Of a DNA stretch of 64,000 nucleotides, positions 2-38,702 are shown piece by piece. Under the pieces are notes generated by a model. The model saw only the letters and a list, made by a program, of their open reading frames with translations. It was not told the DNA's origin and made no database searches. A program made the translations under genes and the position numbers. Within the stretch, counting starts at the first letter, position 1, and each line of letters starts with the position of its first letter. The stretch is from NCBI GenBank assembly GCA_964610645.1, contig CAZSZE010000016.1:617-64616 (forward strand), written 5' to 3'. Source of the stretch: an uncultured Enterobacterales bacterium. GTDB taxonomy: Bacteria > Myxococcota_A > UBA796 > CAJQPC01.

Positions 2-373
2 CCGGCCCTGGAGGGGACGCCCCAGGTGGAGCTGGCGGTCGAGAAGACGCCCCTGGACACCACCTTGCTGGCAGCGCGATCCCTCTTGTACGGCGGTGTG
101 GGGGTTGCTGTCCTTGGGGGTGGGCTGGCCTACAAGGCCCGCTCAGAGGGCATGGGCATTTATGGCAAGATGGAAGATGCAGCGGACAACGACGCCTACG
201 ATGCCCTGGTGGAACCCTACCTGGCTGCCGCCACCCAGACCCGGAACATGGGGCTGGTCGCTGTGGCCGGCATCGCCCTCGCCGGGGCGGGGTTTGCACT
301 GGACAGTCCGGTTGCTGCCGCTGGTTGGATGAACAGCCAGGAAGCCGGGGTCACGCTGACCTGGCTACGGTGA
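2..373 (+). CDS. hypothetical protein, C-terminal fragment (5' end outside the window)
   Basis: The frame is open from the first bases of the window to the TGA at 371-373. Gly/Ala-rich hydrophobic stretches (GVGVAVLGGGLAY, GLVAVAGIALAGAGFAL) are present. No family motif recognised. Confidence 0.35.
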   Translation, partial: PALEGTPQVELAVEKTPLDTTLLAARSLLYGGVGVAVLGGGLAYKARSEGMGIYGKMEDAADNDAYDALVEPYLAAATQTRNMGLVAVAGIALAGAGFALDSPVAAAGWMNSQEAGVTLTWLR

Positions 374-1924
374 CACCCCATGCCGCTTCCAGGGCCGCTC
401 GATGGTCTTGTTGCGGGTCACTTCCAGGCCGCGAATCAGCTGGTTGCGGGTCTCCCGCGGATCGATGACCTCGTCCACGAGTCCCAGGCGGGCCACCTGG
501 TAGGGGGTGATGTAGGCCTTGATCATCTCCACTAACTGGGCCTTCATCGCCTCTGGGTCCTCCGCCGCGTGGAGCAGCTTGCCCCCAGCGATGCCGAGCA
601 TTCCCTCGGCGCCCATGACGGAGATCTCCGCGGTGGGCCAGGCCAGGATTAGATCCGGCTCAAACGCCCGGCCACACATGACGTAGTAGCCAGCCCCATA
701 CGCCTTGCGCAGGATGATCGTGAACTTGGGCACCGTGGCCCGGGCCACGGCGTACAGCATGCGCGACCCATGGCGGATGATGCCGCTCTTTTCGGCGTGG
801 CTGCCCACGATGAATCCGGGCACATCCTCCAGGAAGACCAGGGGGATCTGAAAGGCATCGCACAGGTTCACGAACCGGGCGGCCTTGTCGGCTGCATCGG
901 AATCCAACACGCCGCCGAGGTACCTGGGGTTGTTGGCCACAATTCCCACGGAGTAGCCGCTGATGCGGGCGAACCCGGTCACGAGCGACTTGGCCCACTT
1001 CGCCTTCATCTCAAAGAACTTCCCGTCATCCACGATGAACGGAATGACCTTGCGCACGTCGTAGGTTCGGCGGGTGTCGTCCGGCAGGACGGACAGGATC
1101 TCGTCGTCGATGAGGTAGGGCCCCGGCGCATTCTCCATGCGGGGAGGCTTCTCATCACAGCTCTGGGGGAAGTAGGACAAGTAGTCCCGCACGGCCTGCA
1201 GGCAGGCTGCATCGTCTTCCACCTCCATGTCCGCGCAACCCGATTGGGCGCAGTGCACCTGGGAGCCCCCCAGTTCGACTTCGTTGATGTCTTCTCCCAC
1301 CGCTGCTTTGACCAGGGCAGGACCGGCCAGGGCCATGGAGCTGGTGCCCTTCACCATGGGGACAAAGTCTGCGAGGCCGGGAATGTAGGCGGTTCCAGCA
1401 GCTCCGGGACCCACCATGGCGGAGATCTGCGGCACCACGCCACTCATCACCACCTGCTCACGAAAGAGGTAGCCCGAGTCGGCGAATGTCGGGATCCGCT
1501 CCATGGCACCGGGGCTCGGGTTCAAGCGGGCACCCGCCGAATCCACCAGCCAGATCATGGGAATGCGATCCCGCAGGGCGATCTCCCGCATGCGGGTGAC
1601 CTTGACCTCGCTCACCTGGCCAATGGTGCCCCCCAGGACCGTGAAGTCATAGGCGGCGATGCACACGAGGCGCCCATCGATCTTGCCCGTGCCGGTGATG
1701 ACCCCATCGGCTGCCAGCAAGGGGGCTGCGGTCTCACTGCCGTGAATGCCCAACTCCATGAAGGAGCCTTCATCACAAAGGGCATCGACGCGCTCCCGGG
1801 CGGTCAGCTTGCCGCGGCCATGTTGGCGGGCAATTCTCTTCTCGCCGCCCATCTCCAGGGCCTTCTCCCGGCGTGCGGTCAGCTCGGTGATGCGTTCCTG
1901 CATGGACACGATGCCATGGGTCAT
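365..1924 (-). CDS. acyl-CoA carboxylase carboxyltransferase (beta) subunit, PccB/MccB/AtuC-like
   Basis: 520 aa from the ATG at 1924, with an ATGA overlap onto the upstream stop. The N-terminal GKLTARERVDALCDEGSFMELG and the C-terminal PLVFLEDVPGFIVGSHAEKSGIIRHGSRMLYA...AWPTAEISVMGAEG are typical of the carboxyl transferase family. Confidence 0.9.
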   Translation of the reverse strand: MTHGIVSMQERITELTARREKALEMGGEKRIARQHGRGKLTARERVDALCDEGSFMELGIHGSETAAPLLAADGVITGTGKIDGRLVCIAAYDFTVLGGTIGQVSEVKVTRMREIALRDRIPMIWLVDSAGARLNPSPGAMERIPTFADSGYLFREQVVMSGVVPQISAMVGPGAAGTAYIPGLADFVPMVKGTSSMALAGPALVKAAVGEDINEVELGGSQVHCAQSGCADMEVEDDAACLQAVRDYLSYFPQSCDEKPPRMENAPGPYLIDDEILSVLPDDTRRTYDVRKVIPFIVDDGKFFEMKAKWAKSLVTGFARISGYSVGIVANNPRYLGGVLDSDAADKAARFVNLCDAFQIPLVFLEDVPGFIVGSHAEKSGIIRHGSRMLYAVARATVPKFTIILRKAYGAGYYVMCGRAFEPDLILAWPTAEISVMGAEGMLGIAGGKLLHAAEDPEAMKAQLVEMIKAYITPYQVARLGLVDEVIDPRETRNQLIRGLEVTRNKTIERPWKRHGVSP

Positions 1925-4359
1925 GCGGAGGTCCTCACCTCGGCGATGCCGTTTGTAATCACCGGGTCGTTGTTCTGGTTCAAGGTCAGCAGTGAAAGGG
2001 TCTGCACGCCGTTCTCCTCGCCCTGGAGCCAGCCGCGGGTGGTGAGCACGTCCCCTGGAAGCACGGGCCTCGCGAACCGGCACGCCAGGCGCTGGACACG
2101 CGTGTAGTCCCCGTCCAGGTGATCCTCGATGACCGCCTGGCCCACAAACGCCAGGGTGCACAGGCCGTGCAGGATGATGCCTGGGTGTCCCGCAGCCTTG
2201 GCCGTGGCATCGTCCATGTGGATCGGGTTCTTGTCGCCGCTGGCATTCCCATAGGCGATGGGCTGCTTCTCACCGACCGTCACGGTCCTCGTGAACAGGG
2301 GCTCGCCGGGGGGGTCCTCCCGGGGGGGCTTGGGCTTGGAGGGTCCGTCTCCCTCCTTCTTCGTGGCGCGAATGAAGTACCCACTGATGGTCTCGCAGGC
2401 GAGTTCGCCATCGATCATCAGGTTCTGCTGCACCTTGAGCAGCTCCCCCGAGGATTTCTTCTCGATGGAGTGGATGATCGCCCGCGGTGCGACCAGGTCT
2501 CCGGGTTGGATGACGCGGTGGAACCGCATGTCCTGCTCGCCATGCAACAGGCGCATCAGATCGGCGTTGAGGTCCTTGTCCAGGACAGCCTGCCCGATCA
2601 CATCCATGTAGGGCACGACCGGAAAGAGCAGGGGCACGGCTGCACCGGAGGTGAACTGCTCGTTGGGATCGCCGCTTGCCTGGGCATAGGCGATGGCGGC
2701 CTCTGTTGTGACGAACCGCGCCTGGGCCCGGGAAACCTTGCCAATGCAGGCCTCGTTCATGCCGTCGCTGGCGGGGGCGGCGGGGGTTCCACCGGCCTTT
2801 GCCTGCTCCCGCACCTTCGCTGCTTGTTTCATGTCGATACAAGCCGCGAACTTCATGAGGATCTGCATGTTGTCGGCTTTGATCTTGCCGGCCATGAACG
2901 CCTGCTGGGCATCGGTCTTGCCCTCGGCAATGGCCAGGAAGGTGTCGACCGTTTCGTAGGTGATCGTGCAGTCCGGCGACTCGGGGGCACCCTTGGCGGT
3001 GGTGCATTCCTGGTTGCGGATGGTCACCGTGTAGGAGGCCTCGCCGCCCAGGTCGAAATGGATGTCGGCATCCACGCCGCTGGCACGCTCGGCCACAAAG
3101 GCATCGGGCATCTTCTGGAAGACCGTGTCCAGCTTGTTGCCGCCGCTGGTGTCGTCTTTGGCGGCCGCCGCAGATGCAGCCTTGCTCATGTCGAACACCG
3201 TGGCGAACTTCATGAGGATGGTCATGTTGTCGGCCTTGATCTTGCCGGCCATGAACGCCTGCTGCGAATCCACGGTGCCGCCCACCATGCCCAGCCAGGT
3301 GTCGGCGGAGTCAAAGGTGATGGTGCAGTCCGGGCTGTCCTGGGCACCGTTCATGCCCTCACAGGTGCCGCTGTCGATCTTCACGCTCCAGGTACCCTCC
3401 TCCCCGATCACAAAGTGGATCATGGCGGACATGTCGCCGGCTTTTGCAGGCAGGAAGGCCTCGGGCATGCGGGCAAAGATCTCGTTCAAGGTGTCCGTCA
3501 CGGAGCCGCTGCTGCTCTCCTCGGCTGCTGCTGCACCGGGAAGGGCGGAGATCTCATCCAGGCGCTCCGAGAGAAGCTGGGGCGTCCACTTTCCGTCCAG
3601 CTTCACGCCGTCGGTGGGAATCATGTGGTACTCGAAGACCTGGGGTCCGTGGGCACCGAAGATGCGGCCGTTCAGGTCGCCTGAAAGATCGCTGCACAGC
3701 CACAGGGCCACAGGGGCGATCAAGTCTGGCGTGATGTCCTCGCTGACCATGTCGATGTCTTCGGTCATGCGGGTCTTGGCCATGGGGGCGATGCAATTCA
3801 CCCGCACGTTGTACCTGGTGAGCTCCTTGGCGCAGACCCGGGTGAAGCCGGCGATGCCAGCCTTGGCGGCCCCGTAGTTGGCCTGGCCAAAGTTGCCGAT
3901 CAGCCCGGAAAAGCTGGAGGTGTTCAGAATCACGCCCGACTGCTGGGTCTTCATGACCCGGGCTGCAGCGCGGGTGCACTGGAAGGTACCGCGCAGGTGG
4001 ACCGCCACGACCGAATCCCACATGTCGTCATCGATCTTGAGCATGGTCTTGTCCCGGAGGATGCCGGCGTTGTTGACCAGGATGTCCACCTGGCCCCACT
4101 TTTCCGTGGCGGTGGCCACGATGGCGTCTCCTTCGGTGACCACGTTGTGGTAATCGGCGATGGCTTCGCCACCTGCGGCGTTGATCTCCTTGGCGACCGC
4201 ATCGGCCATGGAGGTGCTGCCCTCGCTGCCGTGGCAGTCGCCCCCGAGGTCGTTCACGACGACCCGGGCGCCTTCGCTGGCGAAGAGCAGGGCGTATTCA
4301 CGGCCGAGACCGCCGCCGGCCCCGGTGATGATGGCGACTTTTCCGTCGAGCATTCCCAT
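1921..4359 (-). CDS. multifunctional beta-oxidation enzyme: SDR (3-hydroxyacyl-CoA dehydrogenase type) + two tandem SCP2 domains + MaoC/hydratase-2 double hot-dog
   Basis: 812 aa from the ATG at 4359. SDR motifs ITGAGGGLGREYA and NYGAAKAG (YxxxK). Two SCP2 repeats, each ending QQAFMAGKIKADNM(T/Q)ILMKFA. Hydratase-2 motif YGNASGDKNPIHMD. The gene abuts the thiolase stop. Confidence 0.9.
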   Translation of the reverse strand: MGMLDGKVAIITGAGGGLGREYALLFASEGARVVVNDLGGDCHGSEGSTSMADAVAKEINAAGGEAIADYHNVVTEGDAIVATATEKWGQVDILVNNAGILRDKTMLKIDDDMWDSVVAVHLRGTFQCTRAAARVMKTQQSGVILNTSSFSGLIGNFGQANYGAAKAGIAGFTRVCAKELTRYNVRVNCIAPMAKTRMTEDIDMVSEDITPDLIAPVALWLCSDLSGDLNGRIFGAHGPQVFEYHMIPTDGVKLDGKWTPQLLSERLDEISALPGAAAAEESSSGSVTDTLNEIFARMPEAFLPAKAGDMSAMIHFVIGEEGTWSVKIDSGTCEGMNGAQDSPDCTITFDSADTWLGMVGGTVDSQQAFMAGKIKADNMTILMKFATVFDMSKAASAAAAKDDTSGGNKLDTVFQKMPDAFVAERASGVDADIHFDLGGEASYTVTIRNQECTTAKGAPESPDCTITYETVDTFLAIAEGKTDAQQAFMAGKIKADNMQILMKFAACIDMKQAAKVREQAKAGGTPAAPASDGMNEACIGKVSRAQARFVTTEAAIAYAQASGDPNEQFTSGAAVPLLFPVVPYMDVIGQAVLDKDLNADLMRLLHGEQDMRFHRVIQPGDLVAPRAIIHSIEKKSSGELLKVQQNLMIDGELACETISGYFIRATKKEGDGPSKPKPPREDPPGEPLFTRTVTVGEKQPIAYGNASGDKNPIHMDDATAKAAGHPGIILHGLCTLAFVGQAVIEDHLDGDYTRVQRLACRFARPVLPGDVLTTRGWLQGEENGVQTLSLLTLNQNNDPVITNGIAEVRTSA
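2806..3459 (-). repeat. internal tandem duplication encoding two SCP2 sterol-carrier domains (period 357 nt)
   Basis: About 60 nt is near-identical between 2846-2907 and 3203-3264 (gcgaacttcatgaggat...catgttgtcggc.ttgatcttgccggccatgaacgcctgctg). The two protein repeats are about 119 aa apart. Confidence 0.85.
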
Positions 4360-4361: not shown

Positions 4362-5474
4362 TCAGACCCTCTCGATGATGGTGGCGATCGCCATGCCCCA
4401 GCCGATGCACAGGGTAGCGAGTCCGGTGTTGGCATCACGCCGCTCCATTTCATTGAGCAAGGTCGTGACGAGTCGGGCGCCCGAACATCCCAGGGGGTGG
4501 CCCAGGGCGATGGCGCCTCCGTTTACGTTGGTTTTGTCCAGGTCTCCGCCGGTTTCCCGGGACCAGACCAGGGGCACGACGCCAAAGGCCTCGTTGACCT
4601 CGAAGACATCGATGTCGTCTATGGTCATGCCAGCCTTGGCCAGCGCCCGGTTGGTGGCCTCGATGGGACCGGTCAGCATGAGGGTCGGGCAGCTGCCCAC
4701 GACCGCCATGGAGGTGATGCGGGCCCGGGGGGTCGCCCCAAGGCGCTCGATGCCGTTTGCGTTTGCAAGCATGACCGCAGCCGCACCGTCGCTGATCTGG
4801 CTGGAGCTGGCCGCTGTGATGAGGCCGTCGTCCTTGAACGCCGGGCGCAAAGTCGCAAGCTTCTCCAGGGTGGAGCCGGCCCGGGGGCCTTCATCGGTGG
4901 TCACGCCATCCACCGCGTGAATCTCCTGGGCGAATCGGCCCTCTTCCCTGGCGGCAAGGGCCCGGCGGTGGGACTCCAGGGCCAGGGTGTCCAGCTCGTT
5001 GCGGGTGATGCCCCACTTTGAGACCATCAGCTCGGCGGACAGTCCCTGGGGAATCACGTCAAAGCGGTCCAGGACCGCATCGGAGAAGGAGCCGCCGTCG
5101 GAGCCCATGGGACACCGGGACATGCTCTCCACCCCGGCTCCGATGGCCAGGTCCATGGCCCCAGAGGCCACGGCCTGGGCCGCGAAGTTCACCGCCTGCA
5201 GCGAGGAGCCGCAGAGACGGTTGACTGTCGTGCCGGGCACCGAAATCGGAAACCCGGCCGACAGCACCGCCAGTCTGGCGACGTCGAGCGCTTGCTCGCC
5301 CGTCTGGGTCACACACCCCATCACCACGTCCTCGACCTCGGAAGCTGGAACTCCCGCGCGATCCACGACGGCTTTCAGGTTCTCGGCAGCGAGAATGTCA
5401 GGCCGAATGTGGGAGAGGACCCCATCGCGCTTTCCGATGGGGGTGCGAGTGGCTGCAAGGATGTATGCGTCCAT
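4362..5474 (-). CDS. acetyl-CoA C-acyltransferase (thiolase)
   Basis: 370 aa. N-terminus AATRTPIGKRDG, active-site Cys context VNRLCGSSLQA, C-terminal NGGAIALGHPLGCSGARL. Confidence 0.9.
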   Translation of the reverse strand: MDAYILAATRTPIGKRDGVLSHIRPDILAAENLKAVVDRAGVPASEVEDVVMGCVTQTGEQALDVARLAVLSAGFPISVPGTTVNRLCGSSLQAVNFAAQAVASGAMDLAIGAGVESMSRCPMGSDGGSFSDAVLDRFDVIPQGLSAELMVSKWGITRNELDTLALESHRRALAAREEGRFAQEIHAVDGVTTDEGPRAGSTLEKLATLRPAFKDDGLITAASSSQISDGAAAVMLANANGIERLGATPRARITSMAVVGSCPTLMLTGPIEATNRALAKAGMTIDDIDVFEVNEAFGVVPLVWSRETGGDLDKTNVNGGAIALGHPLGCSGARLVTTLLNEMERRDANTGLATLCIGWGMAIATIIERV

Positions 5475-5496: not shown

Positions 5497-5856
5497 CTAG
5501 GCGTGGGTGTCGTCCGAGGTCTTGTCGTTCGAGGTCTTGCGGAAGAGGCGGGTGTCCTGCAGCTTCATGACGTCAGCCATGTTGCCGGCAATCTTGATCT
5601 GGCCGGACATGAACGCCTGCATGGGGTTCACGGAGCCGGTGATCATGCCAATCCAGGTGTCGGCGTTGGTGTTGATGGTGGCGGTCGCGTTGTCCGCGGT
5701 GCCTTCTTCAACGGTACAGGTGCCGTCGGCCACGTTGAGGATCCAGTTCTCGTCGTCGAAGTGAAACTGGACACAGGTGGTCCAGGAGCCAGCGGCCTCG
5801 GAGTTGAATCGGCCGGGCATGGCCTCGAAGATGTCTTTGATGGTGATGTCTGCCAT
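5497..5856 (-). CDS. SCP2 sterol-carrier/lipid-transfer domain protein
   Basis: 119 aa. ADTWIGMITGSVNPMQAFMSGQIKIAGNMADVMKL matches the SCP2 signature and the two SCP2 repeats at 2806-3459. Confidence 0.85.
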   Translation of the reverse strand: MADITIKDIFEAMPGRFNSEAAGSWTTCVQFHFDDENWILNVADGTCTVEEGTADNATATINTNADTWIGMITGSVNPMQAFMSGQIKIAGNMADVMKLQDTRLFRKTSNDKTSDDTHA

Positions 5857-5914: not shown

Positions 5915-5933
5915 TGTGGGGTGCCACCTGATG
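5915..5933. promoter_or_regulatory. candidate operator, palindrome TGTGGGGTG-C-CACCTGATG
   Basis: One of six intergenic copies of the AGGTG-N-CACCT-core palindrome. It lies 59 nt upstream of the SCP2 operon start. Confidence 0.55.
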
Positions 5934-5949
5934 CTCGGCCAAGGGCCTG

Positions 5950-7566: not shown

Positions 7567-7592
7567 TGTAATGTGACAGGTGACACTTTACA
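7567..7592. promoter_or_regulatory. candidate operator (TGACAGGTG-A-CACTTTACA at 7574-7592 plus extra half-site TGTAATGTG at 7567)
   Basis: Lies in the divergent ALDH / extended-SDR intergenic region. Same palindrome family as the other five sites. Confidence 0.5.
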
Positions 7593-15466: not shown

Positions 15467-15541
15467 GGCGGGTTCGCCGGCCCGAGCGGACCGGAACGAT
15501 GCCGGAAGGGCTTGACGGGCGGGGCAGGTCCACATACAAAG

Positions 15542-29910: not shown

Positions 29911-30594
29911 TTATCCCCGAATCTCCCCCATCACCGCCGCCAGCACCTCTGGATCTCGGAGCATTTCCGTGTGGCGCAGTCCACGCATTACCTGGCACCG
30001 CACCTGGTTGTCGTCTGCGAAAGGAACCATGCCGAAGGGGTGGATGCACAGTGGGTCGCGCTTGCTCACGATGGATAAAAGTGACACGTCCTCCGGCCAG
30101 GGGGCCTGGTTCAGGCGGCGAATGGCTGGGGAGAGGGGGACCATCTGGTAGGGGGCGCTGCTGAGGACGCCCAGGCCCACGAACAGGCCGGCGATGGCGG
30201 CGGGGGTGCCCCGGTGGGGGGTGCCGATGGTGATCAGGCCGCGCACAAAGCGGCCAGCTCCTTCCTCCTGGATGGCCCAGCGGGCGATGATGCCGCCGAT
30301 GGAGTGGGCCACGAGCCAGGGGCGGTGGCCGTCGGGGAGGGTCGAGAGGTACTGCTCCAGGCGGCGGCCGCCGGTCTTGATGCCCCGGGTCTGCAGGTAG
30401 CCGAAGAGGCCGCCGAGGGGGGCGGCCGCTGCGTTCAGACCTTCTTGGGACAGGTGCTTTCGCACCGAGTTCATGGCCCGGGAGGAGTTGCCGAAGCCCT
30501 GGATCAGGATCACGTCCGGCGTGCCGCTCCCACTGCCCTTTCGCTGCGGCAGGTAGAAGCCAGGTGTGCCGAAGTTGTCTGTGAGGAACTTCAT
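29911..30594 (-). CDS. alpha/beta-fold lipase/esterase
   Basis: 227 aa from MKFLTD, with an ATGA overlap onto the upstream GH gene. Nucleophile elbow AHSIGG (the A-x-S-x-G lipase variant), then GTPHRG. Confidence 0.75.
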   Translation of the reverse strand: MKFLTDNFGTPGFYLPQRKGSGSGTPDVILIQGFGNSSRAMNSVRKHLSQEGLNAAAAPLGGLFGYLQTRGIKTGGRRLEQYLSTLPDGHRPWLVAHSIGGIIARWAIQEEGAGRFVRGLITIGTPHRGTPAAIAGLFVGLGVLSSAPYQMVPLSPAIRRLNQAPWPEDVSLLSIVSKRDPLCIHPFGMVPFADDNQVRCQVMRGLRHTEMLRDPEVLAAVMGEIRG

Positions 30595-31949: not shown

Positions 31950-31952
31950 GGA

Positions 31953-33884
31953 CTACTGCACCTGCTCCGCGAGGTGCTCGGCAGCCCGGTGGGCCCAGGC
32001 CATGATGGAAAGCTGTGGGTTGACCCCGAGGGAGGTGGGGAAGATGCCCCCATCCACCACGTACAGCCCGGGAAGCTCCCAGGACTGCAGGTTGGAGTCC
32101 ACCACGCCCCCGCGGGCCGATGTGGACATGCGGGCGGTTCCGAGGGGGTGAAACGCCATCAGCTCCAGGGCCCAGGGATCCAGGGGCTTGGCGAGCACGT
32201 CGAGGGCTTCCTCCAGCGTGTCCTGGGACTCGGCGCCTGCCAGGGGAAGAAAGATCCGCTCTGCCCCGGCAGCAAAAAAGACCCGGGCCAGGATCTTCAG
32301 ACCCTTGCCCACCTGCGCCAGGTCTTTTCGGGACATCCAGTAATAGAGAATGGCCTTTCCATCCGGCCCCCGAAAGACACGGCCGTTGGGTCCATCTGAC
32401 ACAAAAAGTCCAAACATCGCCAGGTGTTGGAATCGCTCCATGACCTCCGTGTAGGCTCGGCCCACAAAGGGCACGGCGATGCTGGAGTAGGCAGGAGGGA
32501 GAAATGCCCCTTCGAACATGAGTCCCTCGTCGGCGTACTCGGTGATGCCGTAGCCCTGGGGCGTGTCTTCCCAGCCATTGACGACTTCAGGCATGAGCGC
32601 GGCGATCTTGGCGGCGGGGTGCAGTGTCAGGTGGCGACCGAGGTGGCGGTTCTTGAGACCGACTCCCTTGAGAAAGGGCACACCTGAGATGCTGCCGCAA
32701 GCGCTTACGACTGCGTCGGCGCGGACGGTCAGGGCGGGGCCGCCCCCCTGGGGAGAGGCGATCAGACCGCCGGCCCGGCTGCCGTCTCGAATCACCGTGT
32801 GGGCCCGCAGTCCCGTGAAGAGCCGGGCACCCGCCCGCAATGCATCAGGCACGTAGGTCACATTCATGGACTGCTTGGCTTCGCGCGGGCAGCCAAAGGC
32901 ACAGACCGCACTGCCTTCGCAGCCCTTGATGTTGCGCTTCAGGGGCCCGTGCTCGAGATTCAAGGCGGCTGCTCCCCGGGCGATCACACGGCTGGAGCCT
33001 CCCAAGAGCGAGTCGGGCACTGGCTTCACGGAGAGCCTTTCTTCCACAGATCGGAAGTGGCGGGCCACCTCGTCGCGATCCACGGGCAGCCCCAGCTCCT
33101 CCCACACTTTCAGGACCCGCTCCGGCGTGCGAAAGCAGGTGCCGGAGTTGATGGTGGTGGTCCCTCCCACGGTCATGCCCAGGGGAACGGGCAGGGCGGG
33201 TCGACCCAGGGCCAGGGTGGTGCCGCCTTCCCGGTAGGTGGTGCGCAGGGCTCGCATGGGATCCCCGCCAAATTCCTCTGTGCCGTGGATGCGCCCCTCC
33301 TCCACGAGGACCACGTCGATGCCCTTTTCTGCAAGCTCCGCAGCCACCACCGCCCCTCCGGCACCAGATCCCACCACAGCGACCTGGCAGCGCACCTCCG
33401 TGTCCCGTTCCAGGACCGAGACCACGTCTTCCATGGGCAGCTTCATGGGCTCCCGGGGCTGCACGCCTTCCAAGCGATCCGGGGGATGCCCGATGGAGGC
33501 CTGCACCGCGCGGCGCCCGATGTGCACCGGCTTCACCAGGGTCAGCAGCAGGCGTGCAGCCTGTCGGATCAGGAAGATGCGGGACTCGGCCCACCTGTCC
33601 ACCCAGCGGATTTGGGCTGGCCCATCCAAGGAGGTGAACGGGCGGGCATGAAAGAGCAGACTTCCCCATTCAAAGAACCACAGGACCAGCCGCACCGCGA
33701 TGCGCCCCTCTGGGGGCATGCTGGTCAGGGTCAGGCCCAGCTTGTGAATCAGGTCGTCGCTGTCTACGGGCAGGTTCAGCACCTCCCCCGGCGGGATGGC
33801 TGCCTCGACAATTGCCTGGAACAGCCGGGCGTGGCGCCGGGAGATGGGCGTGGGTTCCAGGGTTTCTAGTGCCATGTGGGTCAC
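31953..33884 (-). CDS. GMC-family FAD oxidoreductase with ~160-aa N-terminal extension (long-chain alcohol oxidase-like layout)
   Basis: 643 aa. FAD motif VAVVGSGAGGAVVAAELAEKG and C-terminal GMC motif FHPLGTARM. The stop lies 3 nt before the GH gene start. Confidence 0.85.
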   Translation of the reverse strand: MTHMALETLEPTPISRRHARLFQAIVEAAIPPGEVLNLPVDSDDLIHKLGLTLTSMPPEGRIAVRLVLWFFEWGSLLFHARPFTSLDGPAQIRWVDRWAESRIFLIRQAARLLLTLVKPVHIGRRAVQASIGHPPDRLEGVQPREPMKLPMEDVVSVLERDTEVRCQVAVVGSGAGGAVVAAELAEKGIDVVLVEEGRIHGTEEFGGDPMRALRTTYREGGTTLALGRPALPVPLGMTVGGTTTINSGTCFRTPERVLKVWEELGLPVDRDEVARHFRSVEERLSVKPVPDSLLGGSSRVIARGAAALNLEHGPLKRNIKGCEGSAVCAFGCPREAKQSMNVTYVPDALRAGARLFTGLRAHTVIRDGSRAGGLIASPQGGGPALTVRADAVVSACGSISGVPFLKGVGLKNRHLGRHLTLHPAAKIAALMPEVVNGWEDTPQGYGITEYADEGLMFEGAFLPPAYSSIAVPFVGRAYTEVMERFQHLAMFGLFVSDGPNGRVFRGPDGKAILYYWMSRKDLAQVGKGLKILARVFFAAGAERIFLPLAGAESQDTLEEALDVLAKPLDPWALELMAFHPLGTARMSTSARGGVVDSNLQSWELPGLYVVDGGIFPTSLGVNPQLSIMAWAHRAAEHLAEQVQ

Positions 33885-33925: not shown

Positions 33926-34429
33926 ATGGTTCTCTTCGATGTTGGTTTCAGCTTCGTGGCGGCAGGCGCAATGGCCTGGCGTGCCCAGGGCACCCGCCCA
34001 GACCTGCCGCTGGTCTTCACAGGCTGTGGTCTCGCTCCAATCGGATTGATCTTCCTGGAGCGCTATCCGGCCTGGGATTGGCAGTACCTCGTGGATCCAG
34101 CCACGACGCCGGACATCACGCCGACGCTGTTTGTCGGGGCCATCGGGGTCGCAGCGGTGGCGGGCCACAAGGTGGGGAGTCGCTCGGTGAAACCCATCGC
34201 CGTGGCGGCGGGTCTGCTGGGCTTGTTCTGCCTGGTGCTGATCAAACAGATGCTCTTTGTGGGTACCTATGCCCAGTACCAGGCGGGAGAGGCGGCCCTG
34301 CTGCCCATGGAGTTCCTTGTCTTTGCTGTGCCCTGGTTGTCGCTGGGCGGCGGCATGCTGGGGGCATGCTTCTGGTGGTCTGAGAAGGCGGGTCGTGCAG
34401 CCCGTGGTTCCTCGCCGGGTGGAGGCTGA
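33926..34429 (+). CDS. hypothetical polytopic membrane protein
   Basis: 167 aa with about 4 hydrophobic segments. No family recognised. Confidence 0.5.
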   Translation: MVLFDVGFSFVAAGAMAWRAQGTRPDLPLVFTGCGLAPIGLIFLERYPAWDWQYLVDPATTPDITPTLFVGAIGVAAVAGHKVGSRSVKPIAVAAGLLGLFCLVLIKQMLFVGTYAQYQAGEAALLPMEFLVFAVPWLSLGGGMLGACFWWSEKAGRAARGSSPGGG

Positions 34430-34435
34430 CCGATC

Positions 34436-35269
34436 ATGCGTGGTGCCAGCCGAACCGCTGTGCTCGTGGCGGCCCTTCGGGCTCGGGCGACCTCCCGTGA
34501 AGACCCGATCTGCGTGGATCCCTGGGCCAAGTGGTTGTGTGGCGCGGAAGGGGAGGCCATGGCGGAGCGCACCCTGGAGTTCTTCCCGCCGGCGGAGCTG
34601 TGGGTTGCCCTGCGGACCGCCTTTCTGGATGGATTCCTGCGCCGTCGGTTGAAGGAAGGGGTGGACCAGGTCGTGGTTCTCGGTGCTGGGCTCGACACCC
34701 GGGCGGTGCGGCTCCAGGCGCCGGAGGTGCGCTTCTTTGAGGTCGACCATCCGGACACGCAGGCGGCGAAGATCGAAGGGTTGAACGCCCTGGGGGACTA
34801 CCCGGTGGAGGCTGCCACCTATGTGTCCTGCGATTTCACCCACCAGACGCCCGTGGAGCGGCTGATCGCCGCGGGGATGGACCCGAACCGGCCGACGGCG
34901 GTGCTGTGGGAGGGGGTGGTGCCCTACCTGGATCGGGAAGCGGTGGTGGCCACACTGACGCAGCTGCAAACGGGATTGCACGGGGAGAGCGTGGTGGCGT
35001 TCGACCTGGTAAACAAGGCGCTGGTGGAGGGGCGCTCCTCCATGTCTTCGGATGAGCAGCTCGTCGGCATGGTGGACGAGGTGGGCGAGCCGTTTCGCTA
35101 CGGGGTGAATGACCCGATGCCGCTCTTGGTGGAGTCGGGCTACCGCCACGTGCGCACCTTGTCTTTTGATGAGATCTGCCTGGAGGTCACCGGGTCCTAC
35201 AAGCGGGAGCGTGCCTTTCGCTTCCAGTCCGTGGTGCTGGCCAGCCGGGCCCGCCGGTTGAACTTCTGA
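34436..35269 (+). CDS. class I SAM-dependent methyltransferase (leucine carboxyl methyltransferase/TIGR00027-like)
   Basis: 277 aa. Motifs SRTAVLVAALRA, VVVLGAGLDTRAVRL, FFEVDHPDTQ and VLWEGVVPYL. Confidence 0.85.
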   Translation: MRGASRTAVLVAALRARATSREDPICVDPWAKWLCGAEGEAMAERTLEFFPPAELWVALRTAFLDGFLRRRLKEGVDQVVVLGAGLDTRAVRLQAPEVRFFEVDHPDTQAAKIEGLNALGDYPVEAATYVSCDFTHQTPVERLIAAGMDPNRPTAVLWEGVVPYLDREAVVATLTQLQTGLHGESVVAFDLVNKALVEGRSSMSSDEQLVGMVDEVGEPFRYGVNDPMPLLVESGYRHVRTLSFDEICLEVTGSYKRERAFRFQSVVLASRARRLNF

Positions 35270-35273: not shown

Positions 35274-37088
35274 CTATGCCCGGGGCGTCGCGTAGAGCGC
35301 CTCGATCTGGTCCGCGTAGAGACTCGCGATCTCCTTGCGCCGAAGCTTCATGGTGGGGGTGAGGGTGGCCTCTTCGATGGAGAAGTCCCGGGGCAGAATC
35401 GCGTGGCGCTTGATCTGCTCGAACCGTGCCAGCCGGGCGTTGGTCTTCTCGATGGCGGTCTCCATGCGGGCCAGCACGTTCGGGTGGGAGGGGAGGTCGT
35501 CCTCGGTACAACCCAGCTCCTCGGCCACCCGGGGCGCTTCCCGCTCATCCAGGGTCAAGAGCGCCACCACATAGGGTTTCCGGTCTCCATGCACGTACAC
35601 CTGGCTCACCAGGGGCTCCTCTTTCACCAGGGCCTCCAGGCGGGCCGGCACCACATACTTGCCGCCAGCGCTCTTGATCAGGCTCTTCTTGCGATCCGTG
35701 ATGCGCAGGAATCCGTCCGCATCGATCTCCCCGATGTCCCCGGTGCGGAGGTAGCCGTCCTCATCGAACAAGGCAGCATTCTCGTCAGGCAGGTTGTGGT
35801 AGCCCGCAAAGACCGTCGGCCCCTTGAGCAGAATCTCCCCGTCCTCGGCCACCTTGACGTCGACCCCCGGAATGGCCTGTCCCACGGTGCCCAGCCGGGT
35901 GTTGTCCAGTCGGTTCGCAAAGGAAATGGCGGTGGCTTCAGACAGTCCGTAGACCTCGATGATCTGCAGCCCCATGCCGTAGAAGAACTCCAGGATCTCC
36001 AGTTGGATCGGTGCGGATCCCGTGACGAAGACCTTCACCCTCCCGCCAAAGACCGCGCGAATCCGAGTGTAGACGAGCTTGTCGGCGAGGTTCCACTGCA
36101 GGCGCCGACCCAGGGGCATGGGTGCGCCGCCCATTGCGCTGTGGGTCTTCTCGAGGGACAGGCTCTTGGCCCAGTTGAAAATCGCCTGGCGTCGGGGGTT
36201 GGCCTTGGCCACCTCCTCGTGGATTCGGCCGTACATCTTTTCAAAGATGCGGGGAACTGCACCAAAATAGGTGGGGCGAATCTCCCCCATTTCCTCCAGG
36301 AGCGTGTCGTAGCTGGTGGCGTAGGCGGTCGCGAGACCGATGTTGATGCGTCCGAAGAACCCGGGCACGTGCTCCGCCACGTGGGCCATGGGCAGAAAGG
36401 AGATCGTGATGTCGTCGGCGGTAATGTCCTCCACCATTCCCTCGCCGGCGCGAAGGCTGGAGAGGATGTTCTGGTGGGTCAGGGGCACGCCCTTCGGTCG
36501 GCCGGTGGTTCCCGAGGTGTAGACGGTCAGGGCGGGACTTGTGGGGTCCACGTGCTCGCTGGCCCGGCGGATTCGGTCCCCATCTTCCTCGAGGGCGCTG
36601 GTGCCGCGGGCCACCAGGTCCTCCATCTGCACGACGCCGGGCTGCGCATCGGGCGCGTGGTCCCAGACGACGATGTGCTCCAGGCAGCCGACTTCCGCAA
36701 GGAGCGGTGCAACGCGCTCGAAATACTCCTGTCCCTGGACAAAGAGCACCCGGGTGCCGGAGTCCGCAAGGATGAACGAGACCTGGTCTGGCAAGAGGGT
36801 CTGATAGATGCCCAGATTCATGGCCCCCAGCATCATGGTGGCCAGGTCAATGCAGCACCACGCGGGCACCGTGTCCGCCAGGATCGCCACCGTGTCCCCG
36901 TTGCCGACGCCCAGCTCCTGCAGCCCTGCGGCCAGGGTCTGTACCTCGTCCGAGAACTCTCCCCACGTGGTGGAGGTCCATTCTCCGCGCTCGTTTCGCA
37001 CCCGGTAGGTTTCCACGTCCCGGGAGACATCCACCCGGCGCCAGAAGAGATCGCAGAGGGTGGTGGATTCGGGGGCGAGCATCTTCAT
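35274..37088 (-). CDS. long-chain-fatty-acid--CoA ligase (AMP-forming)
   Basis: 604 aa from MKMLAPE, with an ATGA overlap onto the DUF35 stop. Motifs YTSGTTGRPKGV, TGDIGEIDADGFLRITDRKKSLIK and PTMKLRRK. Confidence 0.9.
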   Translation of the reverse strand: MKMLAPESTTLCDLFWRRVDVSRDVETYRVRNERGEWTSTTWGEFSDEVQTLAAGLQELGVGNGDTVAILADTVPAWCCIDLATMMLGAMNLGIYQTLLPDQVSFILADSGTRVLFVQGQEYFERVAPLLAEVGCLEHIVVWDHAPDAQPGVVQMEDLVARGTSALEEDGDRIRRASEHVDPTSPALTVYTSGTTGRPKGVPLTHQNILSSLRAGEGMVEDITADDITISFLPMAHVAEHVPGFFGRINIGLATAYATSYDTLLEEMGEIRPTYFGAVPRIFEKMYGRIHEEVAKANPRRQAIFNWAKSLSLEKTHSAMGGAPMPLGRRLQWNLADKLVYTRIRAVFGGRVKVFVTGSAPIQLEILEFFYGMGLQIIEVYGLSEATAISFANRLDNTRLGTVGQAIPGVDVKVAEDGEILLKGPTVFAGYHNLPDENAALFDEDGYLRTGDIGEIDADGFLRITDRKKSLIKSAGGKYVVPARLEALVKEEPLVSQVYVHGDRKPYVVALLTLDEREAPRVAEELGCTEDDLPSHPNVLARMETAIEKTNARLARFEQIKRHAILPRDFSIEEATLTPTMKLRRKEIASLYADQIEALYATPRA

Positions 37089-37513
37089 GTTGCAGCTCCT
37101 GCCGGGCGAAACCGCCAGGCGCACAGGCCTTCGTGGATGTCGAGGACTTCCGGCTCCAGGGCATCCCCGATGGAGAGGGACTCCTGGGTGCCAGCAATCG
37201 GACTCATGACCAGGCCCACGCCGGGAATCTCGACCACGCCGATCACGTCCGGGTAGGTAAAGCGCAGGCCGCGGTTCTGGGTGGTGAAGGCGTACAGGGT
37301 GGCGCCGGACCCGATCTCCCGCCAGCTGACCGTGTCGGAAAAGCAGGTGGGGCAGAACTCCCGGGGGGGGAAGGTGGTCAAATCGCAGGCGTCGCAGTGG
37401 GTGGCGCACAGGGTGCGGTCCGTTGCGAGGCGTCGTTGCAGCTCCTTGGAGGCCCGGGTTCCATACTGGTCCAGGGCCTGGAGGGCGAATTCCTGGAGGG
37501 GATTGCCGCCCAT
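37085..37513 (-). CDS. DUF35 Zn-ribbon/OB-fold protein (thiolase-like partner)
   Basis: 142 aa. Cys4 ribbon C.THC..C....FPPREFCPTC followed by an OB-fold region. Confidence 0.85.
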   Translation of the reverse strand: MGGNPLQEFALQALDQYGTRASKELQRRLATDRTLCATHCDACDLTTFPPREFCPTCFSDTVSWREIGSGATLYAFTTQNRGLRFTYPDVIGVVEIPGVGLVMSPIAGTQESLSIGDALEPEVLDIHEGLCAWRFRPAGAAT

Positions 37514-37514
37514 G

Positions 37515-38702
37515 TCAGCTCCTGTTCTCGAAGGCCATGACCACCGAGCCGTTCATCATGCCGTGTTCCGCGTGGACCAGTCCTACCCGGGCGTTCTCCA
37601 CCTGGCGGCCCGGGGCCTGGCCCCAGAGCTGTCGGACCACCTCGGCCACCTCGTAGAGGGGAGTTGCGCCCGCTGGATGCCCAAAGCTCATGCGGCCGCC
37701 GGTGGGGTTGATCACCACGTCGCCCCCCCAGGTACTCCCGCCATCCGCCAGGAAGTGGGCGGCTTCGCCTTTCGGACAGAACCCCAGGTCCTCGTAGAGG
37801 ATCAGCTCCGTGGCGCCGAAGACCCCGTAGACCTCGGCGACATCGACGTCGTCGGGGGTGATGCCAGCCTCCTCGCAGGCCTGTTTTCCGGCCTCCACCA
37901 CGGACTCGAAGCGGGTGATGCTGCCCTTTCGGGGAATGAAGTGGCTGGGGTGGTGGTGCTCGCCGTAGCCGGTGATTCGGACCACATCTCGCCCGTTGTC
38001 GCACCGATCCGCAGAGGTCACCACGACGGCCACAGCCCCGGAGGAAATGCTGGCAGCTTGCAGCAGGTGAATCGGCGGGGAGAGCCACTTGGAGGACAGG
38101 ACGTCGTCGACGGTGATCGGGTCTCGGAACTGCGCCAGGGGGTGGTTCGCCGCGTGTTCCCGCAGGCGGACGCTGGAGAGTGCGACCTGGGCCTCGTCGA
38201 CCCCGAACTCGTGCATGTAGCGCTGGTGGGACAGGGCGTAGAGCGGAATGGGCGGGCCGTGGCCCAAGATGGAGTTTACGCCGCCGTAGAGGGCAGCCGT
38301 GGTGAAGGCCACGTGGCGCACAAAGGACTCGAAGTGGTTGGTGTCGAGCGTGGGCCGCGTGTCGGAGGCCACCACCAGGGCGGCTTTGCAGCGGCCCAGC
38401 GCGACGGCATCCATGGCGGACCGGAGGGCCAACAGCGCTGAGGCTCCGCCGTTCTCCACCAGCACGAGTCCCTTGGTTGTCAGGCCCAGGTGCTCTGCAA
38501 AATTGGCAGCGAACATGAGCCAGGGTTCACCGGACAACGCGGCTGGGGTCAGAAAGAGGCCGTCGATGTCAGCGGGCTTCAGTCCAGCATCCAGCACGGC
38601 CTCGCGGGCGACGGTGGAGCAGGTGTCCAGCACCGTTTCGTCCAGATCCCTTTGCACGGGGGTGGTGGAAAGACCTGCGATGGCAAGGGGGGAGCCGGTC
38701 AC
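37515..38702 (-). CDS. thiolase-like protein (SCP-x/lipid-transfer-protein Ltp type)
   Basis: About 396 aa from the GTG at 38702, with GAGG upstream. The longer ORF-track start would swallow the operator. Thiolase-fold C-terminus NPTGGRMSFGHPAGATP. It ends 1 nt before the DUF35 gene. Confidence 0.85.
   Translation of the reverse strand: MTGSPLAIAGLSTTPVQRDLDETVLDTCSTVAREAVLDAGLKPADIDGLFLTPAALSGEPWLMFAANFAEHLGLTTKGLVLVENGGASALLALRSAMDAVALGRCKAALVVASDTRPTLDTNHFESFVRHVAFTTAALYGGVNSILGHGPPIPLYALSHQRYMHEFGVDEAQVALSSVRLREHAANHPLAQFRDPITVDDVLSSKWLSPPIHLLQAASISSGAVAVVVTSADRCDNGRDVVRITGYGEHHHPSHFIPRKGSITRFESVVEAGKQACEEAGITPDDVDVAEVYGVFGATELILYEDLGFCPKGEAAHFLADGGSTWGGDVVINPTGGRMSFGHPAGATPLYEVAEVVRQLWGQAPGRQVENARVGLVHAEHGMMNGSVVMAFENRS

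Follow-up and report, generated by a model that had tools for sequence, protein, structure and literature searches.

In a 64,000-nucleotide stretch of the metagenomic contig CAZSZE010000016.1 (hereafter the window), we describe a group of lipid-catabolic operons that share a conserved palindrome at their promoters and that, on balance, probably form a chromosomal regulon for the degradation of lipids beyond the reach of plain beta-oxidation. Methyl-branched or bulky acyl chains are the most likely substrates, a class that we infer from sequence. About 27 of the 34 genes between positions 365 and 38702 are acyl-CoA or lipid genes, and among the annotated genes of the remaining 25 kb there is one AMP-binding enzyme, which belongs to an unrelated cluster. 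The evidence supports a co-regulated and co-conserved catabolic unit, not a chance juxtaposition. An earlier note on the same DNA had read the segment as a single putative regulon assembled from peroxisome-like and steroid-side-chain-like parts; most of the gene content that it listed is indeed present by Pfam and NCBIfam annotation, its single regulon is borne out by the shared palindrome and by the conservation of both palindrome and genes in relatives, and a specific link to sterols finds no backing. Homologues with 66-76% identity carry the label of Myxococcota metagenome-assembled genomes (MAGs), and the uncultured host is probably a member of this phylum.

The G+C content of the window is about 65%, and it therefore holds many shadow open reading frames (ORFs). 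Genes were called by frame choice on the G+C content of codon positions (the third position), with starts refined against the called genes of relatives; they were annotated with Pfam and NCBIfam models, and solved relatives were found by sequence searches of the PDB. Loci of relatives that were compared with the window bear L-numbers (L004, L088 and so on). Inside the operons, neighbouring genes overlap by 1-8 nt, mostly through a 4-nt ATGA, or are separated by gaps of a few bases. Operon A (7515 to 365, minus strand) encodes an aldehyde dehydrogenase (ALDH), an SCP2 protein, a thiolase, a fusion of a short-chain dehydrogenase/reductase (SDR) with two SCP2 domains and a hydratase-2, and a carboxyltransferase. 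The seven genes of operon D (15577 to 23441, plus strand) encode an acyl-CoA ligase, an alpha/beta hydrolase, a crotonase, a small and a large acyl-CoA dehydrogenase (ACAD), a Zn-dependent alcohol dehydrogenase (Zn-ADH) and a second ALDH. Operon E (27365 to 24323, minus strand) consists of hydrolase, small ACAD and large ACAD genes, operon F (27575 to 29124, plus strand) of genes for a MerR-family regulator and a crotonase, and operon G (38702 to 35274, minus strand) of genes for a thiolase-like protein, a DUF35 protein and a second ligase.

A k-mer comparison of the intergenic regions yielded a 19-bp palindrome, TGTAAGGTGnCACCTTACA, which has four matches with at most three mismatches in the window (7574, 12167, 27414 and 38719) against 0.02 expected, and two weaker copies, at 15541 and 5916, that are conserved in relatives. 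All six sites lie directly upstream of lipid operons: two at operon A and one each before the lone ACAD gene, operon D, the divergent operons E and F, and operon G. The palindrome was found nowhere else in the window, including the segment from 39 to 64 kb. Loci L005-L084, mostly unrelated SDR loci returned by a profile search with an alignment of MFE-2 proteins that keyed on generic SDR motifs, served as a negative control; among the 90 loci scanned (1.5 Mb), these 80 contain no copy with three or fewer mismatches.

The best copy, TGTAAGGTGTCACCTTGCA (27414..27432, one mismatch), is situated in the divergent promoter region between the hydrolase gene of operon E and the MerR gene, and the equivalent site of L088 (9063) likewise has one mismatch. 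Between the ALDH gene of operon A and the divergent extended SDR gene, two overlapping copies span 7567..7592 (four mismatches at 7567, three at 7574), and this intergenic sequence is nearly identical in L004 (6804-6835). A degenerate copy, CATCAGGTGGCACCCCACA (5916..5934, read on the minus strand), precedes the genes for SCP2, thiolase, fusion protein and carboxyltransferase; it is kept in L004 (8458-8476), and L102 has a perfect palindrome (3856) at the equivalent position. The copy upstream of the lone ACAD gene, TGTAAGGTGACACCTCATG (12167..12185, three mismatches), corresponds to a site with one mismatch in L004 (3186-3204) and to a site at 15 in L102. Upstream of operon D, TAATAGGTAACACCTTACA (15541..15560) and its promoter are nearly identical in L004 (1905-1925). 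Finally, TATAAGGTGGCACCTGATA (38719..38737, three mismatches) lies 14 nt ahead of the GTG with which the thiolase-like gene starts, and L091 (9961), L095 (9960) and L107 (2332) have orthologous sites. In total, four sites are conserved in L004 (76% identity on the fusion protein) and one in L088; L089 and L090 have one each, immediately upstream of the small ACAD gene, and L091 has three. The palindrome is also present in L095, L098, L102, L107 and L136. It thus recurs at orthologous promoters across relatives of 45-90% protein identity.

We propose that the palindrome is the operator of the MerR-family protein encoded at 27575..28327 (plus strand, 250 aa; Pfam MerR_1, 73.6 bits; NCBIfam FtsR, E 5e-10), and that the six promoters carrying it control about 23 genes. 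The C-terminal part of this putative regulator resembles Rv1828/FtsR, a weak signature that is matched by weak or faint Rv1828_C matches in its orthologues. The palindrome occurs in the promoter region of the MerR gene itself and at five other promoters. Moreover, a MerR orthologue directly precedes the genes for the thiolase-like and DUF35 proteins in L098, L099 and L136; L098 and L136 have a predicted operator in front of MerR, and in the L099 locus none was found. Of the evidence at hand, this arrangement speaks most strongly for this MerR protein as the cognate regulator. By eye, the site before the ligase gene of operon D follows just downstream of a conserved TTGACG-17-TACAAA, a placement that would suit repression. 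A MerR-family repressor of branched-chain acyl-CoA catabolism, LiuR, is known from Proteobacteria (PMC3223726).

The same genes travel together in relatives. In L102/L103 (64% identity on the thiolase-like protein), 13 cluster genes are packed into 17 kb, namely those for the lone ACAD, the extended SDR, the ALDH of operon A, SCP2, a shorter MFE-2-like protein, the carboxyltransferase, an ACAD pair, the thiolase-like and DUF35 proteins, the ligase of operon G, a methyltransferase and a GH5-like protein. In L091/L107 (59%), operons G and D are merged into one that runs from the thiolase-like and DUF35 genes through ligase, hydrolase, small ACAD, large ACAD and Zn-ADH to ALDH. L090 (44-46%) combines small ACAD, large ACAD, MerR, hydrolase, thiolase-like and DUF35 genes beside a carboxyltransferase-ACAD-MaoC group, and in L123 (49%) a GMC oxidoreductase gene and the operon A-type ALDH gene are divergent from extended SDR, thiolase-like, DUF35 and ligase genes, with a MerR gene nearby. 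Since these distant relatives keep the specialised genes together with operator and MerR, and the pair of thiolase and MFE-2-like genes occurs alone in others, the conserved functional core appears to be the specialised set.

These observations bear on an alternative view, in which lipid paralogues that share neither function nor control form a loose neighbourhood. The genomes of high-GC bacteria from soil and the sea are rich in paralogues for beta-oxidation, and the cluster is interrupted by MopE/FG-GAP, GH5-like and methyltransferase genes and by variable filler genes. Yet the common operator is far above chance and conserved at orthologous promoters, and operons that are separate in the window are merged into one in L091 and L090. 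Because the conserved operator is shared, chance clustering is excluded, and we consider the idea of a loose neighbourhood extremely improbable. Two of the interruptions, at 8767-10890 and 12251-13855, are unrelated genes for secreted MopE (Cu-binding motif)/FG-GAP repeat proteins. The segment from 12 to 14 kb has a G+C content of 0.587 against about 0.65, and L004 lacks both blocks, a different 377-aa gene replacing the first and nothing replacing the second, which suggests that they are recent insertions. The gap between the convergent operons D and E (23442-24322) is variable as well: in the window it is occupied by a 196-aa ORF that matches no family, and in L088 by three other genes (an 89-aa ORF, a BNR/Sortilin-like and a beta-helix gene). 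An island in the mobile sense, the term of the earlier note, is not what we see, given the homogeneous composition, the absence of a tRNA or integrase gene and the synteny of the housekeeping flanks in a close relative; Rfam and tRNA scans of the window were empty.

What sets this unit apart from ordinary beta-oxidation is, in the first place, its ACADs. Two pairs of small and large subunits are encoded, as had been claimed, and a fifth ACAD in addition. In operon D, the small subunit (18670..19644, plus strand) has only the C-terminal and a weak N-terminal Pfam ACAD domain; a segment of the middle domain is missing, and with IWGGVDG in place of xEGT the catalytic Glu is lost. The large subunit that follows (19641..20843, plus strand, 400 aa) has the Pfam middle and C-terminal ACAD domains, keeps the Glu in VEGT and finds its best PDB matches among proteins like medium-chain ACAD (MCAD), at 236 bits. 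The Pfam-annotated pair of operon E is built alike: the small subunit (25510..26496, minus strand, 328 aa) has lost the middle domain and the Glu (ALYGGV), and the large subunit (24323..25513, minus strand, 396 aa) keeps FEGT and has orthologues in L089 (79%), L090 (67%) and L102 (72%). Both small subunits therefore present a Gly (WGG and YGG) at the position of the catalytic Glu that the large subunits retain. The two genes of each pair are adjacent with a 4-nt overlap, and L088-L091 and L102 have conserved the pairing, the operon D-type small subunit being paired with a large one in L088 and L091. On sequence, alpha2-beta2 ACADs such as ChsE show the same pattern. The family of the operon E small subunit is narrow: at E up to 1e-10 it counts 85 proteins, all from MAGs or metagenomes, and in about 60 of them the middle domain is lacking. 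Close kinship to characterised steroid ACADs was not found: ChsE4-ChsE5 (4x28) matches the small subunit only at E 7e-4, the large subunits are MCAD-like, and the NCBIfam model IpdE2, with a cut-off of 450 bits, gives 35-38. The lone ACAD gene (10926..12122, minus strand) encodes a full-length protein of 398 aa with all three Pfam ACAD domains and no adjacent small-subunit partner; its orthologues have 89% identity in L004, 71% in L091, where the gene adjoins SCP2, and 77% in L102.

The second distinguishing element is the thiolase-like protein that heads operon G (37515..38702, minus strand, 395 aa, GTG start; Pfam Thiolase_C_1), a candidate retro-aldolase. In PDB alignments it aligns with SCP2-type thiolases, BbsB and TcLtp2, and its segment ENGGAS has no Cys at the position of the nucleophile; aligners place the thiolase Cys opposite either the second Gly or the Ala. 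The Tyr of its YGVF motif aligns with Tyr294 of Ltp2 and Tyr302 of Sal, which in TcLtp2 and CtSal are the catalytic base of the aldolase (PMC12329534), and the His of a GHP motif stands at the position of Tyr344 of Ltp2. Across 112 full-length homologues (at least 44% identity), the GG is invariant, the Tyr is present in 107 and the His in 108; the residue after GG is mostly A, I, T, M or L, with no Cys among these five commonest. A canonical relative neighbouring in L089 keeps the Cys and HDCF. Without a nucleophilic Cys, this family cannot use the acyl-enzyme mechanism of thiolases, and by its residue pattern it is conserved and distinct.

The next gene (37085..37513, minus strand) encodes a stand-alone DUF35 protein of 142 aa (Pfam zf-ChsH2 and OB_ChsH2_C) with a C4 zinc ribbon, CDAC-x10-CPTC, and an OB fold. 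In 29 of the 32 loci of at least 8 kb it accompanies the thiolase-like gene; in the window it is not fused to a MaoC hydratase. This adjacent gene is a DUF35 partner of the kind that is obligate for the steroid side-chain aldolases Ltp2 and Sal, and the two products are predicted to form a complex. A retro-aldolase is thus the most economical inference for the thiolase-like protein. Dead small ACAD subunits and a thiolase-like protein that lacks its Cys and has a DUF35 partner agree with the earlier claim of enzymes for substrates that normal beta-oxidation cannot handle.

Since such parts are known from steroid degraders, we considered whether the cluster is a myxobacterial counterpart of the sterol or bile-acid side-chain systems, that is, of Chs/Ltp2 in Actinobacteria or Scd/Shy/Sal/Sad in Proteobacteria. 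The kinds of parts are indeed the same: heteromeric ACADs, a Cys-less thiolase-fold protein with DUF35, a hydratase-2, ALDHs, ligases, SCP2 and a 3Beta_HSD Pfam match of 91 bits, together with matches below threshold to EchA19 for the crotonases and a FadA5-type match for the thiolase. The bile-acid aldolytic pathway, for example that of Pseudomonas sp. Chol1, includes the heteromeric ACAD Scd and the aldehyde dehydrogenase Sad. In Comamonas testosteroni, the aldolytic pathway for the bile-acid side chain employs the hydratase Shy, the aldolase Sal and CoA ligases (PMC12329534, PMC11321319). The sequence from ligase through heteromeric ACAD, hydratase and thiolase-fold aldolase with DUF35 to ALDH and re-activation has its equivalents in the window, where the protein lacking the thiolase nucleophile keeps the base Tyr302 of Sal. 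However, YGVF and the GHP His stand in place of the YDCY and Gln of Sal, and the DUF35 protein is separate with a C4 ribbon, whereas in the known system it is the C-terminal domain of the MaoC hydratase and has a C3H1 ribbon. The window also differs in having esterases and a Zn-ADH in the same operon, MerR-type control with a palindrome, and no steroid-nucleus pathway nearby.

The comparison with the cholesterol genes of Actinobacteria (ChsE1-E2, ChsE4-E5, ChsH1-H2, Ltp2, Hsd4A/Hsd4B and FadA5, in the KstR regulon) leads to a similar result. Both systems have ACAD pairs with a non-catalytic subunit, a Cys-less thiolase-fold protein with DUF35, the dehydrogenase and hydratase-2 chemistry of MFE-2, and a dedicated transcription factor (here a predicted one) with a palindromic operator at many promoters. 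On the other hand, the similarity to ChsE4-ChsE5 is marginal, the acid Tyr344 of Ltp2, whose motif is YDHF, is a His in the window protein, one fusion protein holds dehydrogenase and hydratase on either side of two SCP2 domains, and the regulator is of the MerR and not of the TetR family. Genes of the KstD, KshAB, HsaA-D and IpdAB types are not among the annotations of the 64-kb window or of the relatives' flanks, in which no dedicated search for them was made. The two alpha/beta hydrolases are not like HsaD, and the extended SDR has solved relatives that resemble sugar epimerases, weakly. We therefore regard a sterol or bile-acid pathway as very unlikely.

The hydrolases had been described in the earlier note as meta-cleavage-type, a view that their best matches do not favour. 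Hydrolase 1, of operon D (17064..17879, plus strand, 271 aa; Pfam Abhydrolase_1), is esterase- or enol-lactonase-like: it scores 164 bits with the NCBIfam PcaD model against 71 with HsaD and 43 with BphD, and its best PDB matches (it was the only one of the two searched) are esterases (4uhc) and one enol-lactonase. Hydrolase 2, the first gene of operon E (26508..27365, minus strand, start uncertain; Pfam Abhydrolase_1, 126 bits), gives PcaD-like scores of 118-124 bits and 61 bits each with HsaD and BphD. Membership of the HsaD/BphD subfamily of meta-cleavage-product hydrolases was therefore rejected for both, every score lying below cut-off (400 for HsaD) and the PcaD type scoring higher. Hydrolase 1 is linked to ACAD pairs in L088-L091, and hydrolase 2 has orthologues in L088 (92%, 261 aa) and L089 (59%). 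The extended SDR of the epimerase/3-beta-HSD family (7631..8698, plus strand, 355 aa; Pfam Epimerase 128 bits) has PDB relatives of at most 64 bits, all of the sugar-epimerase kind, and a 3-beta-HSD label is not backed. Its orthologues are found in L004, L102 and L123.

The peroxisome-like character claimed for the cluster holds for the MFE-2-like fusion of operon A (1921..4359, minus strand, 812 aa), in which Pfam recognises adh_short, SCP2 (two stretches), FAS1_DH_region/MFE-2_hydrat-2_N and MaoC. Its domains follow one another as an SDR-type (3R)-hydroxyacyl-CoA dehydrogenase, SCP2, SCP2, and a hydratase-2 made of a hot-dog domain and MaoC, and its best PDB matches are the dehydrogenase domains of Candida, Drosophila and human MFE-2 (392, 298 and 227 bits; entries 2et6, 3oml, 1zbq and 1gz6). 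The dehydrogenase residues Y162 and K166 (Tyr-x3-Lys) and the residues Y703, S707, D709, N711 and H714 of the double hot-dog hydratase-2, with its GDxNPxH motif, are invariant in 21 homologues. The MFE-2 order of dehydrogenase, hydratase and C-terminal SCP2 is not kept, as two SCP2 domains stand between the two enzymes. An identical protein is already on record. With a stand-alone SCP2 lipid-carrier protein (5497..5856, minus strand, 119 aa; Pfam SCP2 59.8 bits; orthologues in L004, L091 and L102), the cluster has the three SCP2 domains that had been counted. The fusion family is large, with 2974 matches under MAG labels of Myxococcota, Planctomycetota, Bradymonadales, Nitrospinae, Schekmanbacteria and one Asgard archaeon, and its members are about 680 to 1180 aa long because the number of SCP2-type domains varies.

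Compared with peroxisomal beta-oxidation by MFE-2 and SCPx/SCP2, the window thus shares the best solved relatives of its fusion, the conserved hydratase-2 motif and the attached SCP2 domains, and a D-specific chemistry suits 2-methyl-branched substrates that yield propionyl-CoA. It differs in the order of the domains (SDR-SCP2-SCP2-hydratase for SDR-hydratase-SCP2), in a thiolase of the FadA and not the SCPx type, and in the use of dehydrogenases for oxidases; no racemase was found in the window. The thiolase in question (4362..5474, minus strand, 370 aa) is a canonical degradative enzyme by its Pfam Thiolase_N and Thiolase_C domains and by TIGR01930 (423 bits, above cut-off), and its pairing with the MFE-2-like gene is kept in L004 and L085-L087.

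The last gene of operon A, whose start overlaps the stop of the fusion gene by 4 nt, encodes a carboxyltransferase of the PccB/12S/MmdA type (365..1924, minus strand, 519 aa; Pfam Carboxyl_trans 520 bits), and its orthologues adjoin cluster genes in L004, L090 and L102. Its best PDB matches are the beta subunit of propionyl-CoA carboxylase (PCC; 1vrg, 449 bits) and 12S (1on3, 439 bits), compared with 314 bits for the beta subunit of methylcrotonyl-CoA carboxylase (MCC) and 278 bits for that of geranyl-CoA carboxylase (GCC). The presence of a PccB-type carboxyltransferase in the operon of the thiolase points to propionyl-CoA as an output and hence to methyl-branched chains. The same scores bear on a leucine or acyclic-terpene (Liu/Atu) regulon, in which a LiuR-like MerR protein would govern catabolism that depends on isovaleryl-CoA or on geranyl-CoA carboxylase. 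As in the LiuR regulon (PMC3223726), a MerR-family factor would here control several acyl-CoA catabolic operons that include ACAD, crotonase and carboxyltransferase genes; the MerR gene lies beside a crotonase gene, whose product weakly matches gamma-carboxygeranoyl-CoA hydratase (134 bits against a cut-off of 426). The carboxyltransferase, however, is of the propionyl-CoA type, the window has no MCCase, no biotin carboxylase and no HMG-CoA lyase, models of isovaleryl-CoA dehydrogenase score poorly, and the regulator, with its Rv1828/FtsR-like C-terminal part, is about twice as long as the short LiuR. A Liu/Atu regulon is accordingly a highly improbable reading. Of the three resemblances that the earlier note had drawn, to cholesterol side-chain degradation, to Atu/Liu pathways and to peroxisomes, the peroxisome-like label holds, and a specific link to sterols and an Atu/Liu-type role of the carboxyltransferase are not supported.

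For the regulon on methyl-branched or bulky acyl chains that we favour, the following course can be proposed. Esters and alcohols would be converted to acids by the two esterase-like hydrolases, the Zn-ADH, the two ALDHs and possibly a GMC oxidase, and the two ligases would turn the acids into CoA esters. The two heteromeric ACADs, each with a catalytic and a dead subunit, and the ordinary ACAD would introduce the 2-enoyl bond, which the two crotonases and the hydratase-2 would hydrate. Where the resulting 3-hydroxyacyl-CoA can be oxidised, the MFE-2-like fusion and the thiolase would complete a D-specific cycle, with the SCP2 domains helping. Where it cannot, because the alcohol is tertiary or hindered, retro-aldol cleavage by the Cys-less thiolase-like/DUF35 complex may take over, and the carbonyl product would re-enter through ALDH and ligase. 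Propionyl-CoA from methyl branches would pass to the PccB-type carboxyltransferase. Every part belongs to an enzyme family already known, and there are precedents for the logic as a whole. The organisation itself appears to be undescribed, as had been supposed: literature searches on bacterial MFE-2/SCP2 fusions, on myxobacterial steroid degradation and on bacterial phytol catabolic genes turned up no account of it.

A more specific version of this scheme, tentative and distinctly unlikely on present evidence, is that the regulon encodes a bacterial pathway, not yet described, by which isoprenoid lipids are degraded, for instance the phytol of chlorophyll and the ketones and acids formed from it. 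Phytol degradation passes through a C18 methyl ketone and 4,8,12-trimethyltridecanoate, as is known from marine geochemistry. On such a route, the 3-methyl-branched 2-enoyl-CoA would be hydrated to a tertiary 3-hydroxyacyl-CoA, and retro-aldol cleavage by the thiolase-like/DUF35 complex would replace oxidation and thiolysis. An oxygenase, esterase, ADH, ALDH and ligase would process the carbonyl product further; the resulting 2-methyl-branched acids would be degraded by MFE-2, thiolase and SCP2, their propionyl-CoA again going to the carboxyltransferase. A luciferase-like (LLM-class) oxidoreductase is encoded in L088 (7890-9041), between MerR and hydrolase 2, and in L091 (3882-4967), directly behind one of the three operators of that locus, and is not present in the window. 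These proteins could not be classified as FMN monooxygenases or F420-dependent enzymes, so the idea of a Baeyer-Villiger step stays speculative.

Several observations weigh against a specialised regulon as set out above. No catabolic enzyme of the cluster reaches an NCBIfam equivalog cut-off, and activities are therefore assigned at family level only. The thiolase-like protein has neither the YDHF with acid Tyr344 of Ltp2 nor the YDCY with Cys304 of Sal, its Asp and His/Cys being replaced, so that an aldolase activity would be an extrapolation; below about 49% identity, moreover, the thiolase-like/DUF35 pair usually has other neighbours. Neither a biotin carboxylase to partner the carboxyltransferase nor an alpha-methylacyl-CoA racemase nor an oxygenase is encoded in the window. 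Scans with promoter consensus sequences found no clear promoters against which to place the sites, as in the over-long spacer of 19-20 bp between -35 and -10 elements that goes with activation by MerR proteins. No operator was detected at the GMC operon, the SRPBCC genes or the methyltransferase gene. Synteny with L088/L173 (77-98%), which is the nearest relative, covers the cluster and continues into the housekeeping flanks, and therefore reflects relatedness as well as selection. Finally, in relatives of 48-54% identity the thiolase and MFE-2-like genes form a stand-alone two-gene module beside mraZ/mur or other housekeeping genes, and part of the regulon may therefore be general beta-oxidation.

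This last point speaks for an ordinary fad-type regulon, devoted to general beta-oxidation of straight-chain or iso-branched membrane fatty acids and equipped with extra paralogues that have no special chemistry. The wide distribution of the fusion family over several phyla would fit, as would the generic NCBIfam character of the ligases, the lone ACAD, the crotonases and the thiolase, and a PccB-type carboxyltransferase would serve odd-chain and iso-branched fatty acids too. For straight chains, however, dead-subunit ACADs, a Cys-less thiolase-like protein, esterases, and ADH and ALDH in translationally coupled operons would be unneeded; the small ACAD family is very narrow, and in distant relatives operator and MerR stay linked to the specialised genes and not to the general pair. 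A fad-type regulon is, in our judgement, unlikely; the thiolase/MFE-2 pair looks like a general module that was recruited to the specialised regulon in this lineage.

The ALDH of operon A, its first gene (5950..7515, minus strand, 521 aa; Pfam Aldedh 456 bits), is nearest in NCBIfam to the succinic-semialdehyde-type PRK09407 (451 bits, below cut-off), and its orthologues in L004, L102 and L123 are divergent from the extended SDR gene every time. Ligase 1, the first gene of operon D (15577..17067, plus strand, 496 aa; Pfam AMP-binding and AMP-binding_C), is nearest to long-chain or FadD3-type models, below cut-off, and has a 61% identical orthologue in the same operon order in L091. There, the Zn-ADH (20836..21960, plus strand, 374 aa; Pfam ADH_N and ADH_zinc_N) has an orthologue (61%) at the same operon position, and the ALDH of operon D (21957..23441, plus strand, 494 aa; Pfam Aldedh 515 bits), its last gene, has one (54%) that likewise closes the operon. 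The Zn-ADH and the two ALDHs had been correctly recognised. Ligase 2, the last gene of operon G (35274..37088, minus strand, 604 aa; Pfam AMP-binding and AMP-binding_C_3), is of the FadD11 or long-chain type (NCBIfam FadD11 430 bits, below cut-off) and follows the thiolase-like and DUF35 genes in L095, L098, L102 and L123. The earlier count of three ligases exceeds these two, the only AMP-binding ligases inside 365-38702.

Two crotonases complete the set. Enoyl-CoA hydratase 1 (17876..18670, plus strand, 264 aa; Pfam ECH_1 185 bits) starts with a 4-nt overlap with the hydrolase stop, and the start of enoyl-CoA hydratase 2 (28327..29124, plus strand, 265 aa; Pfam ECH_1 193 bits) overlaps the MerR stop by 1 nt; the orthologue of the latter in L091 (65%) adjoins an operator. 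At the 3' end of the hydratase 2 gene (29108-29420), a 29-nt tandem repeat, GGTCTGGAAGGGGCGCTGACGGGCGGGCT, is present in about 2.6 copies and duplicates the stop region. It is followed by two palindromes like repetitive extragenic palindromic (REP) elements, GGGGGGATACGCTATCCCCCC at 29206 and a near copy at about 29356, which have similar flanks. The 786-bp spacer behind this gene is absent in L088, where the hydratase and PGAP1-like genes are 10 bp apart.

The operon beyond that spacer (29911..33875, minus strand) comprises, by Pfam annotation, a GMC oxidoreductase (31953-33875), a GH5-like protein (30591-31949) and a PGAP1/DUF676 lipase-like protein (29911-30594), all on the minus strand. 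The N-terminal extension of the GMC protein, about 160 aa, has no Pfam match, and the closest PDB matches, all remote, cover only the last 60 residues or so, which does not back the proposed likeness to long-chain alcohol oxidases. The operon is syntenic in L088/L173, the GMC orthologue is beside the ALDH gene in L123, and GH5 orthologues are found in L099 and L102; its membership of the regulon is unproven. The two SRPBCC proteins that had been noted are a 157-aa protein (14326..14799, minus strand; weak Pfam Polyketide_cyc2 and COXG matches), for which membership is uncertain, and a secreted lipid-binding protein of 203 aa with the signal peptide MMDRMLAFFLALFIATPAQA (14855..15466, plus strand; Pfam Polyketide_cyc 58.9 bits). 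Both have orthologues in L004.

Next to ligase 2, a plus-strand segment (33926..35269) encodes a hydrophobic 167-aa protein and a SAM methyltransferase of the TIGR00027/LCM type (34436-35269; Pfam LCM; TIGR00027 178.6 bits, above the cut-off of 93.55). The methyltransferase gene adjoins ligase 2 in L088, L095, L098 and L102 and lies near the thiolase-like and DUF35 genes in L099, where ligase 2 has no match; it has no obvious role in the catabolic pathway. On the other side of operon G, a perfect 7-bp inverted repeat, TTTCCTAGAGGTAGGAAA, occupies 38863-38880 between the operator of the thiolase-like gene and a divergent sigma-70 gene, whose ORF extends over 38825-39865 with the true start probably downstream. 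From 39 to 64 kb the window has no relation to the cluster and holds genes for this sigma factor, a tetratricopeptide repeat (TPR) protein, CAP, an S8 protease, HPF and TyrRS, and a cluster at 55750-61972 (plus strand) for an AMP-binding enzyme, a lipid A biosynthesis acyltransferase-like protein and two proteins of the sulfatase/phosphodiesterase family. This cluster looks like one for envelope lipid modification, and its AMP-binding enzyme (55750-57291) is probably what had been taken for a third ligase. Elsewhere, a 3.4-Mb Deltaproteobacteria MAG (L092, CP070770.1) has a thiolase-like/DUF35 pair of 46% identity in a different beta-oxidation cluster with no palindrome, consisting of a crotonase, 3HCDH, two ACADs, an NMO-type oxidoreductase, a ligase and a thiolase; the pair is thus reused in other contexts.

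To conclude, our analysis describes a concrete unit, with one predicted regulator, one operator and about 23 genes, in a lineage that is known from metagenomes only, and with an enzyme chemistry that is otherwise documented mainly in steroid degraders. As the fusion family indicates, D-specific beta-oxidation of the peroxisomal type, its lipid carriers built in, is a common trait of several uncultured phyla of bacteria. If the thiolase-like family, with more than 110 members that are marked by YGVF, GHP and a stand-alone DUF35 partner, is indeed one of aldolases, it would extend the thiolase-fold aldolases beyond steroids and offer a carboxylation-free passage of blocked beta-carbons. An isoprenoid route, if real, would be a carboxylation-independent alternative to Atu/Liu and to alpha-oxidation for beta-methyl branches. 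Should the substrate prove to be an isoprenoid of the phytol type, or derived from hopanoids or sterols, the regulon would provide a marker for the turnover of those lipids in environmental metagenomes.

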